From the IMG/VR virus record IMGVR_UViG_3300036884_000676: DNA of 64,000 nt; one strand, 5' to 3'. This document shows positions 5,040 to 34,075 of this stretch, one piece after another. A model generated the notes under the pieces. The model was not told the DNA's origin and made no database searches. It saw only the letters and a program-made list of their open reading frames with translations. Source of the DNA: a virus (Duplodnaviria > Heunggongvirae > Uroviricota > Caudoviricetes). Numbering within the stretch: the first letter of the stretch is position 1; each line of letters opens with the position of its first letter. Both the position numbers and the translations under genes were made by a program.

Positions 5040-5364
5040 CGTCTAAAATACTTTTTAAAATTCTTTTTCTTAATTCATTTATATATTCTTCTTCTGTTTT
5101 ATACTTATCACCATCCAAATATAAAGCACCTTCCCCATTGAGATATATAATAGCCGGTCCATGTTCATTGTGCATTTTATATTTTTTTGTATAGATAATA
5201 AAATGACCGCCCTTTTTAACTTTCATTGATAATTTGAAATCTGGTTTTTTTAAAAATTCAAAATTTTCTTTTATAAATTTTTTCCATTCACCATGTTCAT
5301 CATCATTTATTTCAATAACGACATATTCAATATCATTCTCTATTTCAATACTGTAAGGTTTCAT
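5023..5364 (-). CDS. HNExGPA-family paralog 1
   Basis: MHNEHGPAII...LYLDG...EEEY...RKRILKSIL. Confidence 0.7.
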   Translation of the reverse strand: MKPYSIEIENDIEYVVIEINDDEHGEWKKFIKENFEFLKKPDFKLSMKVKKGGHFIIYTKKYKMHNEHGPAIIYLNGEGALYLDGDKYKTEEEYINELRKRILKSILDDETDD

Positions 5365-27018: not shown

Positions 27019-27295
27019 TATACCAGCTAATGTTCATTTACCCAAGGTCGAAGTCGAAATCGATCCACTTGATGTCTTAAAAGAATTAGAGGAAGAATTT
27101 TTAGATAAATATGGATGGATTGAAAAAAAAGGAAAGAAATATTTTTTAATGTATCCAGAACTCAGCTTTGATGAAAAGAGTTATCAAGTACGTCAAGTAT
27201 CTACGAATGAAGTGAAATTTATTGATGCTATTCATACGATGCAAACTTTTTTACAAGAAAAAAATAAGAAATCAAAATCAAAACCAAAATCTTAA
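27005..27295 (+). CDS. Hypothetical protein
   Basis: ORF string. Confidence 0.5.
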   Translation: MKTVSIPANVHLPKVEVEIDPLDVLKELEEEFLDKYGWIEKKGKKYFLMYPELSFDEKSYQVRQVSTNEVKFIDAIHTMQTFLQEKNKKSKSKPKS

Positions 27296-27308
27296 CAAAA
27301 AACTCACA

Positions 27309-29354
27309 ATGAAAAAACTCGCAATTATTTTTATGTCATTACTATTTGTAGTAATGGTTGGTTATTCTCAGAAATTCAATCCTGATTCGGGATACAGATT
27401 AACAAAGGATACCTTACAATTAAATGAGGTTACTATCAGTTCCTTTCTTCCATACCAAGCAACAACCTTGATGCCAATCACTTTTAAGAATTTATATAAA
27501 GCTGATTTGGGATTGAAAAATTATGGTCAAGAACCAAGTAGGATTTTAAATACCACTCCATCTATAACCACTTATTCGGAATCAGGTGGTGATTGGGGTT
27601 ATTCTTATATAAGATTAAGAGGTATTGATCAAACCAGAATAAACACCACTCTTAATGGTGTTCCAATGAATGAACCAGAGGATCAAGGATGTTATTTCTC
27701 AAATTATCCTGATTTTCTTCAGTCTGTTGATATGTTACAAATACAGAGAGGAACAGGAATGACTAAAAATGGGTCAGCCAGTTATGTTGGAAGTATGAAT
27801 TTCGAATCATATAAACCATCTACATCAAGTGTAGGGGCCTTTTTCGGAGCTGGATCATTCGGATCAACCAAAATTTCAATGAATACTGAACAAAATTGGA
27901 AAAAAGGTGGGTTATATGCTTCATTTTCTGACCTTGAAACAAAAGGTTATAAATATCATTCTGGTAATCATTCCAGAAGTGCTTTTCTTGTGGGAAATTA
28001 TACAACTGGAAGAAATCAATTTAAATTTGTTGGTTTTGCTGGTGAACAAATGAACCAATTAGCTTGGTTGGGTGTTCCAATAGATAGTATCAATTTAGAC
28101 CGTAGATATAACACTTGTACCACTCGTGAAAATGATCATTTTAATCAATATCATTTGCAATTTCATCACACCTATATTATAGATAATAAATCCAGATTTA
28201 ATTATTGTGTCTATTATAATTATTTGAATGGTTTCTATACTTATGATGGAATTCATAATGGAACATGGGATACTATATCATCTGGTAAATATAATTTATA
28301 TGCATATCATCTTTATTCTAACTTCTTAGGTACTAATGTAAACTATTATATTAAACTTGGACCATTGGATTTTTATACAGGGGTTAATGGTTCTAAGTAT
28401 GATAGGGAACATCATGGAACAACAAATGATATCTATACTTACAAAAATACAGGATTCAGAGATGATTTAAGTGGATTTGTTAAAGGTATTTTAAACGCTG
28501 GAAGTTTCAATTTTTATGGTGATGTTCAATATCGTTATACTACTTTTGTTTATAATGGTGATGTTTATCTACAACATTTTATTTGGAATTTTCTGAATTA
28601 TAGTGTTGGTGTTGAATATAAAGCCAAACACAACATCCTTTATTATTCCATTGGTAAAACACATCGAGAACCTATTCGTAATGATATGTTTGGTGGTTAT
28701 GATAATCTATCGTCTGATCCTCTTGGAAAAGCTGTTTTTTATGATTTAAAACCAGAATCAGTATTGGATCAGGAATTTGGCTATCGTTATATCATAGGAA
28801 ATTTAAATTTGAACATCAATCTATATTATATGTTATTCAAAGATGAATTAGTATTAACGGGAGCTTACGGGCCAACAGGATTACCACTTCATGAAAATGT
28901 AGATAACAGTTTCAGGTCAGGATTTGAATTCGATTTTAAATACAGATGGAAATTTGGATTAACATTACTTCAAAATGTATCCTATAATTATAGTAAAATA
29001 ACATGGACAAATAAACAAACAACTCCTGTCTTAACACCAGAATGGCTATCAAATACTGAAGTAAATTATAATTACAAATGGTTTATAATCGGTTTGAGTG
29101 GTAGGTATCAAAGTTGGTCTTATATTGATCAAAGAAACAACTTCACCATTCCAAGTTTTTATACACTGAATGCTATGATTGGATTAAAATGGTCATGGGG
29201 AGAATGGGATATTTATTTGAATAACATAACTGATCAAAAAACTTTATCGAGTGGTATGGTTTCTGGTGATGGGACTCCTTATAATCAATTTATTCCTCTG
29301 TATTATGTGAATGCACCATTTAATTTCTTTACTGGACTTAAATTTAAAATGTAA
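27309..29354 (+). CDS. TonB-dependent outer-membrane receptor
   Basis: Signal peptide, TonB-box-like LNEVTIS, plug IRLRGIDQTRINTTLNGVPMN, C-terminal FFTGLKFKM. Confidence 0.9.
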   Translation: MKKLAIIFMSLLFVVMVGYSQKFNPDSGYRLTKDTLQLNEVTISSFLPYQATTLMPITFKNLYKADLGLKNYGQEPSRILNTTPSITTYSESGGDWGYSYIRLRGIDQTRINTTLNGVPMNEPEDQGCYFSNYPDFLQSVDMLQIQRGTGMTKNGSASYVGSMNFESYKPSTSSVGAFFGAGSFGSTKISMNTEQNWKKGGLYASFSDLETKGYKYHSGNHSRSAFLVGNYTTGRNQFKFVGFAGEQMNQLAWLGVPIDSINLDRRYNTCTTRENDHFNQYHLQFHHTYIIDNKSRFNYCVYYNYLNGFYTYDGIHNGTWDTISSGKYNLYAYHLYSNFLGTNVNYYIKLGPLDFYTGVNGSKYDREHHGTTNDIYTYKNTGFRDDLSGFVKGILNAGSFNFYGDVQYRYTTFVYNGDVYLQHFIWNFLNYSVGVEYKAKHNILYYSIGKTHREPIRNDMFGGYDNLSSDPLGKAVFYDLKPESVLDQEFGYRYIIGNLNLNINLYYMLFKDELVLTGAYGPTGLPLHENVDNSFRSGFEFDFKYRWKFGLTLLQNVSYNYSKITWTNKQTTPVLTPEWLSNTEVNYNYKWFIIGLSGRYQSWSYIDQRNNFTIPSFYTLNAMIGLKWSWGEWDIYLNNITDQKTLSSGMVSGDGTPYNQFIPLYYVNAPFNFFTGLKFKM

Positions 29355-30773: not shown

Positions 30774-30904
30774 GAGTGTATTAGTGTAACGAAAGCACAG
30801 GCTGTTTGATGTTAGAGTAAGTTTTAGACGGCGGTCTTGGTCATTAGATTGACAAAACTGAAATATCGTAGGTCGGATGAGGGTTCAAATCCCTCATACA
30901 TTCC
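30774..30904 (+). ncRNA. tRNA-like RNA whose anticodon loop is replaced by a ~55-60-nt structured insert
   Basis: 8-bp acceptor GAGUGUAU/AUACAUUC, D arm GUG/CAC, T arm GAGGG-UUCAAAU-CCCUC; no assignable anticodon. Confidence 0.65.
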
Positions 30905-31080: not shown

Positions 31081-31176
31081 CTTTTTTAAAAAACGAAATT
31101 AAATTAAACTTTTTGAAAAAAAAGTTCTAAAATAGAAAAAAGAGACTTTATAAGTTAAATATATAATAAAAAAACA

Positions 31177-31249
31177 TATCCAGTAGGAACGTAAGTTCCG
31201 TTTTGGGACGCTCAGCGACCCAGAGGGGAAAACTCCCCGCAACTGGATA
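31177..31249 (+). promoter_or_regulatory. GC-rich four-way-junction RNA at the 5' end of the rplL-tRNA transcript
   Basis: UAUCCAGU/ACUGGAUA closing GGAAC-GUAA-GUUCC, UGGG..CCCA and GGGG-AAAA-CUCCCC arms. Confidence 0.55.
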
Positions 31250-31260
31250 AACTTTTTGAA

Positions 31261-31431
31261 ATGATTATGACACAGAACATCCAAAATATGATTATTAATC
31301 AGATACCCGGTAAAAATACCGATTGGATGAACTTTGTCTATAACGAATATAGAAAAAACCCAATCGGAAACGATTGGGTTTTTTTGTTTTATATGTCCAC
31401 CATAGTTTTTAACTGGTGTTCTTTGAAATAA
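31261..31431 (+). CDS. Met/Ile/Gln/Asn-rich leader peptide (MIMTQNIQNMIINQIPGK...)
   Basis: 14 of the first 15 codons encode M, I, Q or N; overlaps antiterminator and terminator. Confidence 0.75.
   Translation: MIMTQNIQNMIINQIPGKNTDWMNFVYNEYRKNPIGNDWVFLFYMSTIVFNWCSLK
31358..31385 (+). terminator. Attenuator terminator ACCCAAUCG-GAAA-CGAUUGGGU plus U-run
   Basis: Perfect 9-bp stem; competing strand CCGAUUGG at 31319-31326. Confidence 0.85.
31417..31428 (+). promoter_or_regulatory. boxA-like antitermination element TGTTCTTTGAAA; also 31878-31888 (+) and 45368-45378 (-)
   Basis: Matches rrn boxA consensus; found only at tRNA operons in this window. Confidence 0.55.
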
Positions 31432-31508
31432 TGATAAATCATATTCGGATTATAAGTTCAAAACTGATAATCTGAACATAAAATGTAAATAAAAATAAAT
31501 TAGAAACT

Positions 31509-31886
31509 ATGGAAGATTTAAAAAAATTAGCGGATGATCTGAGTAATCTCACCGTATTAGAGTGTTACCAGTTAGCTAAGATAATGAAAGAAGAATACGG
31601 AATAGAATCAAATACAAAAATTGTTGGTGTGAATGTATCACCAGTTCCAACTAAGGTAGTTGAAATTGAAAAAACAAGTTTTGATGTGATTCTAAAATCA
31701 GCAGGAACAACCAACAAACTTGGTGTTATCAAATCCATCAAAGAAATGACAGGACAAAGTTTATTGGAAATTAAGAATCTCGTTGATAATGCACCAGCGA
31801 AACTAAAAGAAAATGTAAGTAAAGATGAAGCTATGTCTTTACTGAATATTCTGAAAGAATTAGGTGCAGAAATTGAAGTTCTTTGA
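31509..31886 (+). CDS. rplL: Ribosomal protein bL12 (L7/L12)
   Basis: LSNLTVLE...LAK.MKEEYGI; EKTSFDVIL; KLGVIK; KE.VSKDEA...LKELGAEIEV. Confidence 0.95.
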   Translation: MEDLKKLADDLSNLTVLECYQLAKIMKEEYGIESNTKIVGVNVSPVPTKVVEIEKTSFDVILKSAGTTNKLGVIKSIKEMTGQSLLEIKNLVDNAPAKLKENVSKDEAMSLLNILKELGAEIEVL

Positions 31887-31899
31887 AAATAATAAAAAA

Positions 31900-32025
31900 T
31901 GTAGTAGCGAGTTTGAGTGTTACTTCGTAGCTCAACAGTCGAGCATCAATCAGTTAAATTGAAAGTTGTGGGTGCGATTCCCACCGAACCCGAAAGGGTA
32001 ATATCACTCAATGATTATCTCTACA
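31900..32025 (+). ncRNA. tRNA-Asn(GUU)-like domain whose acceptor is embedded in a long closed stem
   Basis: D, anticodon (UCAAU-CAGUUAA-AUUGA) and T arms present; 3' acceptor strand interrupted by a CCC-GAAA-GGG hairpin. Confidence 0.6.
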
Positions 32026-32035
32026 TTTTTTTAAT

Positions 32036-32113
32036 GGGTGTGTAGCTCAGTAGCGTTAGAGCGCGACACTGATAATGTCGAGGTCGTAGGTTCAAGTCCT
32101 ACCATACCCACCA
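32036..32113 (+). tRNA. tRNA-Ile(GAU), canonical, CCA encoded
   Basis: Full cloverleaf. Confidence 0.95.
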
Positions 32114-32123
32114 AAAATAACAC

Positions 32124-32205
32124 TGTGTCGTACGCAGCCGATCCTGATAAGATCGAGAACTTGTAACTGGTGTTGAAAATGTGGGTTCGAATCCCACCGG
32201 CACAA
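32124..32205 (+). tRNA. D-armless tRNA-Ile(GAU)-like RNA with long variable region
   Basis: Acceptor UGUGUCG/CGGCACA-A, anticodon arm CGAUC-CUGAUAA-GAUCG, T arm; only 8 nt where the D arm should be. Confidence 0.7.
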
Positions 32206-32214
32206 CAAAAATTT

Positions 32215-32286
32215 GGGTTGGTAGTACTAATGAAAAACGGCGGCCTGTTAAGCCGCGAGATGTGGGTTCAAGTCCCACCCGGCCCT
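32215..32286 (+). tRNA. tRNA-Asn(GUU) with a weak D arm lacking GG
   Basis: GCGGC-CUGUUAA-GCCGC; GGGUUGG/CCGGCCC. Confidence 0.8.
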
Positions 32287-32295
32287 CAATATTAT

Positions 32296-32369
32296 TCCTC
32301 AGTAGCTCAGCTGGTTAGAGCATTTGACTGTTAATCAAAGGGTCACAGGTCCAAATCCTGTCTGGGGAG
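32296..32369 (+). tRNA. tRNA-Asn(GUU); T-loop is UCCAAAU
   Basis: Full cloverleaf. Confidence 0.9.
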
Positions 32370-32375
32370 CAAAAT

Positions 32376-32451
32376 TCGGAATGTTTGTCTGTGATTGGGT
32401 GCACCACACAGATAATAAAGGAAAAATGTGGTTCAATTCCACCATTCCGAG
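32376..32451 (+). ncRNA. tRNA-like RNA with acceptor and T arm plus one long central hairpin; no anticodon assignable
   Basis: UCGGAAU/AUUCCGA, GUGG-UUCAAUU-CCAC, UCUGUG/CACAGA. Confidence 0.5.
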
Positions 32452-32459
32452 CAAAAATA

Positions 32460-32551
32460 GGGAGTGTAGCTGATTTGGTTTAGCGGCAGACCGTTAATCT
32501 GTGACTGAAAATATTGAAATAAAGTTGGTTCGACCCCATCCTCTCCCGCCA
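32460..32551 (+). tRNA. tRNA-Asn(GUU) with a 21-nt AU-rich variable region, CCA encoded
   Basis: GCAGA-CCGUUAA-UCUGU then GACUGAAAAUAUUGAAAUAAA. Confidence 0.8.
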
Positions 32552-32559
32552 GTACATAT

Positions 32560-32638
32560 TGTGGTGTATCCCCCATGTCTTATAAACATGCATTAAAAGG
32601 GTAATAGCGTGTATGTGGGTTCGAGTCCCACCACCACA
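32560..32638 (+). tRNA. D-armless tRNA-Ile(UAU)-like RNA with long variable region
   Basis: UGUGGUG/CACCACA-A, CAUGU-CUUAUAA-ACAUG, T arm; 6-nt D replacement UAUCCC. Confidence 0.7.
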
Positions 32639-32644
32639 ACAAAT

Positions 32645-32716
32645 GGTCGGGTAAGCTAACGGTTAAACTGGATGTCTTATACACATCTTTTAAGAGTTCG
32701 AATCTCTTCCTGACTA
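32645..32716 (+). tRNA. tRNA-Ile(UAU)
   Basis: Cloverleaf, GAUGU-CUUAUAC-ACAUC. Confidence 0.88.
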
Positions 32717-32721
32717 CAAAT

Positions 32722-32797
32722 GGCGAGATAGCTCAGACGGTTTTAGAGCGTCGGATTCATAACCCGGAGGTCGAGGGTTCAACTCCCTCTCTCGCTA
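32722..32797 (+). tRNA. tRNA-Met(CAU), elongator-like
   Basis: Cloverleaf, UCGGA-UUCAUAA-CCCGG. Confidence 0.9.
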
Positions 32798-32805
32798 CCC
32801 AAAAT

Positions 32806-32877
32806 AGTCCTATGGCGTAACGCGAAGCGTGACTCCCCTTGAAGGAGATGGTACTGGTTCGAATCCAGTTAGGACTG
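32806..32877 (+). tRNA. tRNA-Gln(UUG)
   Basis: AGUCCUA/UAGGACU-G; loop CCUUGAA. Confidence 0.82.
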
Positions 32878-32882
32878 CAAAT

Positions 32883-32968
32883 ATCAATGTGAACGGAATG
32901 GTTATCGTAGAGGTCTCATAAGCCTTTCAACTCGTTGAGTTGTGGTGGTTCGAATCCACTCATTGATA
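32883..32968 (+). tRNA. tRNA with CAU anticodon (Met or Ile2) and a long variable arm
   Basis: GAGGU-CUCAUAA-GCCUU plus CAACUC-GUU-GAGUUG arm. Confidence 0.8.
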
Positions 32969-32974
32969 CAAAAT

Positions 32975-33045
32975 AGTCCTGTGGTGTAACGGTAGCATGC
33001 GAGCCTTTGAAGCTTTGGGTACAGATTCGAATTCTGTCAGGACTG
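32975..33045 (+). tRNA. tRNA-Gln(UUG)
   Basis: Cloverleaf, loop CUUUGAA. Confidence 0.85.
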
Positions 33046-33051
33046 CAAAAT

Positions 33052-33124
33052 TGTTCTGTCGTATAATTGGCAGTACAGCACCCTCTGAAGGTGTATGGTG
33101 TAGGTTCGAGTCCTACTGGAACAG
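33052..33124 (+). tRNA. tRNA-Gln(CUG)
   Basis: GCACC-CUCUGAA-GGUGU. Confidence 0.9.
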
Positions 33125-33129
33125 CAAAT

Positions 33130-33201
33130 GGTTCTGTGGTGTAATGCGTAGCACGAGTGATTCTGAATCACTTGGTTAAGGTTCGAATCCTTACAGAACT
33201 A
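33130..33201 (+). tRNA. tRNA-Gln(CUG)
   Basis: AGUGA-UUCUGAA-UCACU. Confidence 0.9.
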
Positions 33202-33202
33202 C

Positions 33203-33517
33203 ATGAAAAAGGACATAAGAAAGACATTTCGTAAAGAGGTATTCACCAGAGATAAGTATACTTGTAAAGGATGTGATCAAAAACTTGATGAATCTGAATT
33301 GGATGCACATCACATCACTGACCGCAATGAAATGCCAAATGGTGGATATGTGAAAGAGAACGGTATAACTCTTTGTAAGAAAGATTGTCATATAAAAGCT
33401 GAAAAATTTCATATAACAGATGGAAAAGAATGGGTAGAGGGATTTCATCCAGATGACTTATACGAGAAGATTGATTCATCTAAGGGGAAGGCTGTTTTAA
33501 TGTCTCAAATTATTTAG
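33203..33517 (+). CDS. HNH endonuclease
   Basis: RDKYTCKGC...DAHHI...NGITLC...CH. Confidence 0.8.
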   Translation: MKKDIRKTFRKEVFTRDKYTCKGCDQKLDESELDAHHITDRNEMPNGGYVKENGITLCKKDCHIKAEKFHITDGKEWVEGFHPDDLYEKIDSSKGKAVLMSQII

Positions 33518-33584
33518 AATAATGAGAAATAATTTTTTTATTGATTTAATTTTTGTATCTTTGTATTGTATAAATTTAAATTAT

Positions 33585-33857
33585 ATGAAACAGTTTATTA
33601 AACCATCAACATTCAAAGAAAGAAAAAAAAGACCAGATAAAACGAAAGTTGATGAATTTATCGAAAAGTTCAACAAACTTATAAAAAAGGGAGAATTAGA
33701 GGCTAATGATGTACTCAATAAACTCCCATACTTAAATGAATCTGAGTTTAATCTGGCTGTTGCTATTGCTCGTGAAAATGGTTGGCAATTAACTCAATTT
33801 GAAGATAATTACAACACGACATCTTACCAACTTACAGAAATAAAACTTTCTGTTTAA
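33585..33857 (+). CDS. Hypothetical protein
   Basis: ORF after TATCTTTG promoter. Confidence 0.55.
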   Translation: MKQFIKPSTFKERKKRPDKTKVDEFIEKFNKLIKKGELEANDVLNKLPYLNESEFNLAVAIARENGWQLTQFEDNYNTTSYQLTEIKLSV

Positions 33858-33883
33858 AAAACAATATATAATCATTGTTGTAT

Positions 33884-33954
33884 TGTCCTATGGTGTAATG
33901 GCAACACGTGGGTTTTTGGAGCCTTAGTTCTAAGTTCGAATCTTAGTAGGACAA
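33884..33954 (+). tRNA. tRNA-Gln(UUG)
   Basis: UGUCCUA/UAGGACA; loop UUUUGGA. Confidence 0.85.
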
Positions 33955-34049
33955 CTCTATCACAATATACAAGAAGTCAACTACGATGGGAATCGAGGCC
34001 AACACGACAAGGATCAAACTTCGTTATAAAGATATTGTGGATTTTTTCT

Positions 34050-34075
34050 CCCAACCCGAAAGGGTTGGGTTTTTT
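34050..34075 (+). terminator. Intrinsic terminator CCCAACCC-GAAA-GGGUUGGG-U6
   Basis: Perfect 8-bp stem plus U-run. Confidence 0.85.

Follow-up and report, generated by a model that had tools for sequence, protein, structure and literature searches.

A candidate leader-peptide attenuator ahead of rplL and a tRNA array in an uncultivated megaphage

Leader-peptide attenuators are known from trpL, hisL, leuL, thrL, pheL and ilvGMEDA, in which a translated leader rich in control codons is combined with alternative hairpins and a terminator with a U-tract. The ilv and thr leaders sense several amino acids at once, and in the leaders of the amino-acid operons the stop codon is positioned such that a ribosome terminating on it covers the antiterminator strand. 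The pheM leader attenuator of E. coli, which is chromosomal and senses one amino acid, controls pheST, encoding the phenylalanyl-tRNA synthetase. T-box riboswitches likewise couple genes with roles in translation to the state of a particular tRNA by choosing between terminator and antiterminator. Here we describe a phage locus in which the same parts, namely an ORF with a start codon, control codons, a terminator and an antiterminator, are found at the sequence level, the exception being the position of the leader stop codon. The locus is likely to be a ribosome-mediated (leader-peptide) transcription attenuator that gates an operon of rplL and Ile, Asn, Met and Gln tRNA genes.

The phage and the organization of the locus

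The window, i.e. the whole 64,000-nucleotide stretch of DNA that was analysed, corresponds to bases 124537-188536 of a 210,983-base IMG/VR virus record and has a G+C content of approximately 30%. The source phage is an uncultivated megaphage from peat metagenomes, many runs of which contain near-identical contigs; no RNA data set was among the public runs listed for these contigs. The nearest public phage is its relative LR756501, which is uncultivated as well, is 735 kb long and shows about 73% DNA identity over the locus. The predicted hosts of this group of phages are Bacteroidota. In the 211-kb record ARAGORN finds 67 tRNA genes in five arrays. The features of the locus and the five leader–array units are listed in Table 1. 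The window also encodes a 710-aa TonB-dependent receptor-like protein (27222-29354) with Plug and beta-barrel domains and a signal-peptide-like N terminus; the surrounding DNA is phage-like and uniform in composition.

Table 1. Features of the rplL–tRNA locus (window coordinates) and the leader–array units of the genome
Feature	Position	Strand	Description
Promoter-like box	31132..31166	+	A-rich element ending in GACT (31144-47), 10 nt, AATATATAA (31158-66)
Cloverleaf-like structured insert, 5′ UTR	31177..31249	+	73 nt, between promoter box and leader ATG
Leader ORF as it stands	31261..31431	+	56 codons; ends at TAA inside the post-terminator box
Control codons	31261..31305	+	Met/Ile/Gln/Asn in 14 of 15
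Region 1 (CATCCAA)	31278..31284	+	Predicted to pair with 31323-31329 when no ribosome is present (MFE folds); duplex about -9 kcal/mol
CCC run	31306..31308	+	One extra C relative to all seven orthologues (alignments)
Region 2, antiterminator 5′ strand, CCGATTGG	31319..31326	+	8 bp with 31360-67
TGA ending the leader in all relatives	31328..31330	+	Out of frame (+1) in the window
Intrinsic terminator	31352..31385	+	5′ arm 31352-66, GAAA loop, 3′ arm 31371-85, U7 at 31379-85
Post-terminator box, GTTCTTTGAAATAA	31418..31431	+	Conserved; invariant in L007 and LR756501
rplL (bL12, 125 aa)	31509..31886	+	First gene behind the putative attenuator; Pfam Ribosomal_L12 1e-20, Ribosomal_L12_N 1.4e-9
tRNA array	31924..33202	+	Ile, Asn x3, Ile, Met, Gln, Met, Gln x3 and tRNA-like genes missed by ARAGORN
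Unit			Leader M/I/Q/N (31261-31305); rplL and array Ile/Asn/Met/Gln
Unit			Leader RIGMDCGRDDR; array Asp/Arg/Gly/Cys/Met
Unit			Leader PRPERPTEVTT..VVEETA; array Glu/Arg/Pro/Thr/Val/Ala
Unit			Leader KHSKHFSSSSKWF; array His/Phe/Ser/Lys/Trp
Unit			Leader LYYLYLYLY; array Tyr/Leu

The product of rplL, bL12, is the ribosomal stalk protein that recruits aminoacyl-tRNA complexes, and the position of the gene is the same in all orthologous loci. The tRNAs encoded downstream are Ile(GAU, UAU), three Asn(GUU), two Met(CAU) and five Gln(UUG, CUG). The true tRNA count is probably higher, because the array has tRNA-like segments that are called neither by ARAGORN nor by Rfam, e.g. 32125-32205 and 32377-32455. 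Two tRNAs of the array are over-long, a 92-nt Asn (32460-32551) and an 87-nt Met (32883-32969). A search of the + strand from 31386 to 34050 revealed no terminator-like site, and the interval from the putative attenuator to the array is free of further copies of the phage promoter box. An ORF for an HNH endonuclease (Pfam 2.8e-5, 33203-33517) lies within the tRNA operon; behind it come a small ORF and another tRNA-Gln, which has a AATATATAA box of its own at 33863. Just upstream of the promoter-like box, Rfam detects a tRNA of 129 nt (30.5 bits, 30775-30903), which contains a weak tmRNA-like match at 30827-30896 and whose length a large insertion may explain. At the matching place, L007, the nearest relative of the locus, has a tRNA-Thr(UGU).

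The 211-kb genome has exactly five copies of the promoter-like arrangement GACT-N10-AATATATAA, one ahead of each leader and tRNA array, and these copies lie 20-95 nt upstream of a short ORF, an antiterminator/terminator pair and the array. The box is conserved in L007, LR756501 and other phages, and it is presumed to act as a promoter, with a predicted start site in its vicinity. The element AATATATAA alone has 49 sites genome-wide, many of them 10-30 nt before an ATG (e.g. at 5087, 21487 and 63499 in the window). It looks like a general promoter element of the phage, to which the tRNA operons add the upstream GACT. Between the box and the leader, the 5′ UTR insert folds at -35.8 kcal/mol (z = -5.5) into an 8-bp closing stem with three hairpins. 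It is absent from L007, L051-L056 and LR756501, has no second copy in the genome and matches no Rfam family; a tRNA-like role in processing or stabilisation is conceivable.

Searches with the bL12 of the phage and with the promoter motif retrieved orthologous and analogous units from IMG/VR, JGI metagenomes and LR756501. Seven loci (L007, L051, L052, L054, L055, L056 and LR756501) have promoter, leader, terminator, rplL and tRNAs in the same order. A tblastn search of GenBank phages with the phage bL12 yielded only LR756501 and LR756503 as true relatives, and a scan of IMG/VR with a conserved 17-mer of region 2 returned only unrelated loci and the contig of L007. In L057 and L058 (Ga0268276 and Ga0268279), a related phage bL12 gene with 61-64% identity stands behind an ordinary ORF, and no leader or terminator precedes it. 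The link between rplL and the attenuator is thus not universal.

The leader and its match to the tRNA genes

The leader begins with the codons ATG ATT ATG ACA CAG AAC ATC CAA AAT ATG ATT ATT AAT CAG ATA. The first-pass annotation had described 14 of these 15 codons as Met, Ile, Gln or Asn codons, and the ORF listing bears this out: ACA (Thr) is the sole outlier, and all three Ile, both Gln and both Asn codons are used. In six frames of the 211-kb genome, 31261-31305 is the only stretch in which at least 14 of 15 codons are of this kind; about 0.0016 such stretches are expected per 64-kb window, and none occurred in 50 shuffles. The annotation had further equated the leader codons with the downstream tRNA set. 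This also holds, since the array consists of Ile, Asn, Met and Gln tRNAs and the leader samples six of its six anticodon species. The conserved start codon is ATG 31267, whose equivalent is used by the relatives (seven orthologues), and ATG 31261 is specific to the source phage.

The substitutions among the relatives in the control codons are mostly synonymous (CAG/CAA, AAC/AAT, ACA/ACT), and the Val codon that follows the control block appears as GTA, GTT or GTG among eight aligned orthologues. This pattern is the signature of a translated frame, and the leader is therefore likely to be translated. It bears on the idea of a switch that works without translation, through RNA alone or a protein, either by T-box-like binding of tRNA or by a phage antiterminator protein. 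The leader codons could in principle pair with anticodons in the manner of T-box specifiers, which would suit such a switch. Against it stand the synonymous substitutions and the variable Val codon, the ATG start present in all leaders at a short and fixed distance from the promoter, and the Rfam searches: no T-box was matched at the gathering score or at E up to 1, and at gathering and permissive thresholds only tRNAs were returned, plus a sub-threshold Thr_leader match. We regard a switch without translation as very improbable. The Thr_leader match (RF00506) covers 31304-31387 with 24.3 bits, and at a gathering score of 55 the locus is not a member of this family.

The other units of the genome were first found by a genome search with the promoter–leader region, which detected partial copies. 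Each of the five tRNA arrays stands behind the same rare promoter-like motif, a leader ORF that spells the array, an antiterminator and a terminator, and jointly the arrays cover all 20 amino acids. Over the five units, 37 of the 40 anticodon species are sampled by the leader of the array to which they belong, and the cognate assignment of leaders to arrays ranks first of 120 permutations.

The correspondence extends to other phages. In the close clade (L007, L051, L052 and L054) leader and arrays are both of the M/I/Q/N type. In the second clade (L055, L056 and LR756501), whose units have the same promoter and also stand ahead of rplL, the leader core reads YN(D)YCIND and the arrays carry Ile/Cys/Asp/Asn(/Tyr). 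Other groupings of tRNAs are mirrored by the leader in L033 (R/T/N/L/V/I/C), L017 (T/A/R/P/V/G) and L034 (F/S/K/H/I/W), and also in L009. Over ten units, the match between leaders and arrays was reached by 1 of 200,000 random pairings. Compared with L007, the leader and attenuator are identical at 117 of 120 positions (97.5%); the other three are accounted for by a synonymous change of a Gln codon, the C indel and a change from A-U to G.U in the terminator. The identity to L007 is 85.8% in rplL, 81% in the promoter region and 65% in the spacer between the terminator and rplL, which is the least conserved segment.

It has to be considered whether the promoter, the mini-ORF and the terminator form a separate small gene or a decoy transcript, with rplL and the tRNA genes being transcribed from a promoter further downstream. 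A conserved box after the terminators speaks in favour of such an arrangement. The box GTTCTTTRAAATA, whose sites in the genome include 13193(-), 73467(-), 88908(+), 156414(+), 70735(-) and 169914(-), is found after four of the five attenuator terminators, and the fifth is followed by a variant of it. Further copies are present inside the arrays between tRNA genes and at the end of rplL, and the box may serve in RNA processing or as part of a promoter. In addition, a weak sigma-70-like match of 9/12 lies at 31457-31484, in the spacer ahead of rplL, although matches of this kind are no commoner in the sequence than in shuffles. Together, this match and the box at 31418-31431 leave room for an internal promoter before rplL, which counts against the attenuator reading. 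However, separate transcription would leave unexplained the agreement of leader and tRNA set, which is seen in all units and in different phages, and the copy of the terminator 3′ arm that lies inside the leader in most units. The spacer ahead of rplL is, moreover, poorly conserved. We consider the absence of a regulatory link improbable.

The proposed switch and the extra C in the leader

The terminator has a stem of 15 bp, in which the cores of regions 3 and 4 lie at 31359-67 and 31371-78, respectively. The first-pass annotation had proposed a competing pairing of 31319-26 with 31360-67. The two segments, CCGATTGG and CCAATCGG, are indeed perfect complements. The RNA from the leader to the terminator folds at -40.2 kcal/mol (z = -5.8). 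For the folding analysis, the transcript was truncated ahead of the terminator 3′ arm, and a stalled ribosome was mimicked by masking the control codons. In the unmasked truncated RNA, 31278-84 pairs with 31323-29 (1:2 pairing). Masking of the control codons in this RNA, which lacks region 4, yields the 2:3 antiterminator as the MFE structure with -14.1 kcal/mol, so that the model agrees with the earlier suggestion that a ribosome stalled in these codons would leave region 2 free. When region 2 is masked as well, the 2:3 antiterminator is abolished and the terminator has no competitor. In equilibrium folds the terminator is invariably favoured, which means that regulation, if any, would have to be kinetic like that of the classical attenuators. 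The model accordingly depends on the kinetics and the coupling of transcription and translation in the host, which is a point against it.

In the eight sequences compared, 100% of the cells of the 2:3 helix are paired, with one double change from C-G to U-A, and 93.8% of the cells of the terminator (3:4) helix are paired, with double changes in two pairs. One set of three positions changes together, in region 2 (C/U), region 3 (G/A) and region 4 (C/U). The covariation of the helices is modest, because essentially one evolutionary split between two clades lies behind the co-changes. The 1:2 pairing is confined to the clade of the window and L007 and is not conserved in the second clade; it is thus weaker evidence than the other two helices. 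Units from several phages, 15 in all, were examined for the upstream segment that pairs best with the terminator 5′ arm; in 11 of them this segment is located in the 3′ part of the leader and outperforms at least 99% of random genomic segments. A small hairpin at 31308-31321 was also considered and rejected, as it is not conserved and is broken in L051.

The following mechanism is proposed. Transcription would start just past the AATATATAA box, and a ribosome would translate the leader from AUG 31261 or 31267. Slow decoding of any AUU, AUC, AUA, AUG, CAA, CAG, AAU or AAC codon would make the ribosome wait within 31267-31305. Region 2 would then be free to pair with region 3 once the latter is made, the terminator would be blocked, and RNA polymerase would continue into rplL and the tRNA genes. 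With fast decoding, the ribosome would reach region 2 first, where in all relatives it would park on the UGA. As region 2 would be covered, region 3 would pair with region 4, and transcription would end at the U7 tract. The phage thus probably makes these tRNAs only when ribosomes decode Met, Ile, Gln and Asn codons slowly. Since the output would consist of the tRNAs that read the test codons and of bL12, the circuit would form a negative feedback loop on decoding capacity. The composition of the leader, the anatomy of the switch, its conservation, its five-fold repetition and the covariation of leaders with arrays all support the attenuator reading of the first-pass annotation at the level of sequence. 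From this anatomy, repetition, conservation and covariation we infer that the promoter is active and the leader translated, as well as the kinetics and the response of the switch.

The same mechanism might report amino-acid starvation, with uncharged tRNA as the signal, rather than a shortage of tRNA. A stalled ribosome cannot distinguish a missing tRNA from an uncharged one, and all leader-peptide attenuators known to us respond to charging. Starvation would nevertheless be a puzzling signal for this operon, which encodes tRNAs and bL12 and not biosynthetic enzymes, as extra tRNA brings no relief of starvation. Moreover, the leaders sample the codons of individual isoacceptors, rare ones included, and match the arrays anticodon by anticodon, which fits the sensing of tRNA species. 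Starvation is for these reasons the unlikely one of the two signals.

The stop codon of the leader is the part in which the window departs from its relatives. The seven orthologues read ...ATA CCG GTN AAA ATA CCG ATT GGA TGA, giving leaders of 20-22 codons, and their TGA overlaps the antiterminator strand. A ribosome terminating there would cover region 2 and free region 3. The window has CCC at 31306-08 where the relatives have CC. The frame therefore skips the TGA at 31328-30 and continues to the TAA in the post-terminator box, and a stop positioned for masking the antiterminator strand is present in seven of seven relatives and absent from the window copy. The first-pass annotation had correctly noted that the ORF passes through the terminator (56 aa, 31261-31431) and had suggested that one extra A would end it earlier. 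Its arithmetic is right (TAA 31341-43, 27 aa), but no relative uses that TAA, and all use the TGA at 31328-30. A missing A as the explanation of the long ORF is at odds with the equivalent of this TGA in the seven orthologues and with the difference between CCC and CC.

An assembly error at the C run was rejected as well. Contigs of the runs X2, X11 and X14 match the window without an indel, and two of these three runs carry no flag as a potential source of the DNA, although contigs cannot reveal minority variants at the C run. As the same CCC is seen in the contigs of three runs, the extra C is a real, derived variant. Because it removes the parking stop, ribosomes that do not stall would translate on past the terminator. 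To judge from its sequence, the switch should still terminate when the polymerase leads the ribosome, and the window copy may be leakier under tight coupling. This weakens the attenuator reading for the window copy in two respects: a ribosome close behind the polymerase could prevent termination even during fast decoding, as the leader stop is missing, and ribosomes on terminated transcripts of the source phage would have no stop codon.

It follows that the attenuator family could be real and the copy of the source phage crippled, with ribosomes following the polymerase past the terminator and the operon being largely constitutive. Such a copy would be a regulatory mutant or a step towards the loss of control. 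All seven orthologues end at ATT GGA TGA and CCC is found only in the window; the variant is real in several runs, and the 73-nt structured insert in the 5′ UTR is a second lineage-specific change at the same locus. These facts make a crippled copy conceivable. The rest of the switch is, however, kept at 97.5% identity, and the terminator would still form whenever the ribosome is more than about 40 nt behind the polymerase. CCC followed by G is a known context prone to +1 shifts; speculatively, a +1 shift at CCC before G could return some ribosomes to the TGA frame. In E. coli pheL, about 15% of ribosomes shift +1 at CCC_UGA and translate beyond the stop (PMC3082878). Salmonella pheL mutants with increased or decreased frameshifting, in which about 2%-27% of ribosomes pass the stop, had no measurable alteration of pheA expression (PMC3082878), which also argues against a crippling effect of the lost stop. 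On balance, we hold a crippled copy to be a doubtful though serious alternative to the working attenuator.

Relation to described attenuators

The element bears on the reasons for which large phages possess tRNA genes by the dozen and on the timing of their use. We are inclined, somewhat less firmly than for the single locus, to the wider reading that megaphages of this group run a genome-wide tRNA homeostat, in which the tRNA genes are distributed over a small number of operons that stand behind test peptides sampling the codons of their own tRNAs. Five such sensors would cover 20 amino acids, and a shortage of any species, caused by a mismatch in codon usage, host shut-off or host anticodon nucleases, would switch on the exact replacement set, here together with bL12. 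A leader attenuator with matching codons would be the first transcriptional control on record to gauge decoding capacity and to respond by making tRNA, and phage tRNAs would be an on-demand system of repair and supplementation and not a constitutive patch for codon usage. Leader-peptide attenuation would reach beyond amino-acid and synthetase genes and take in RNA genes as well as viruses. The leaders would further provide a natural read-out of the codons that the phage treats as limiting, and ready parts for sensing the supply of individual tRNAs.

Full-text searches of the literature turned up no account of tRNA genes controlled by leader-peptide attenuation, and the huge-phage paper makes no mention of attenuators or leaders. 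The phage element resembles the leaders of the amino-acid operons in its control-codon-rich leader, its alternative hairpins and its U-tract terminator. In the phage relatives the stop codon is positioned in the same way for a terminating ribosome to cover the antiterminator strand, and the phage leader would sense several amino acids at once as the ilv and thr leaders do. Unlike in those operons, genes making the sensed amino acids are not found downstream; the element would control tRNA genes and a ribosomal protein instead of biosynthetic enzymes. As the controlled genes are tRNAs, the sensed quantity and the product would be the same kind of molecule. The phage leaders also differ in sampling up to six or seven amino acids codon by codon, matching the anticodon set, and in being phage-borne and present five times per genome, with the window copy lacking the leader stop. 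With pheM the element would share leader-peptide attenuation of a gene of the translation apparatus, but pheM acts on a synthetase, senses a single amino acid and is chromosomal. T-box riboswitches make a similar choice of terminator or antiterminator according to the state of tRNA, but they bind uncharged tRNA directly, are untranslated and contain conserved sequence motifs. The phage element differs from all described attenuators known to us in its putative targets, tRNA genes and bL12.
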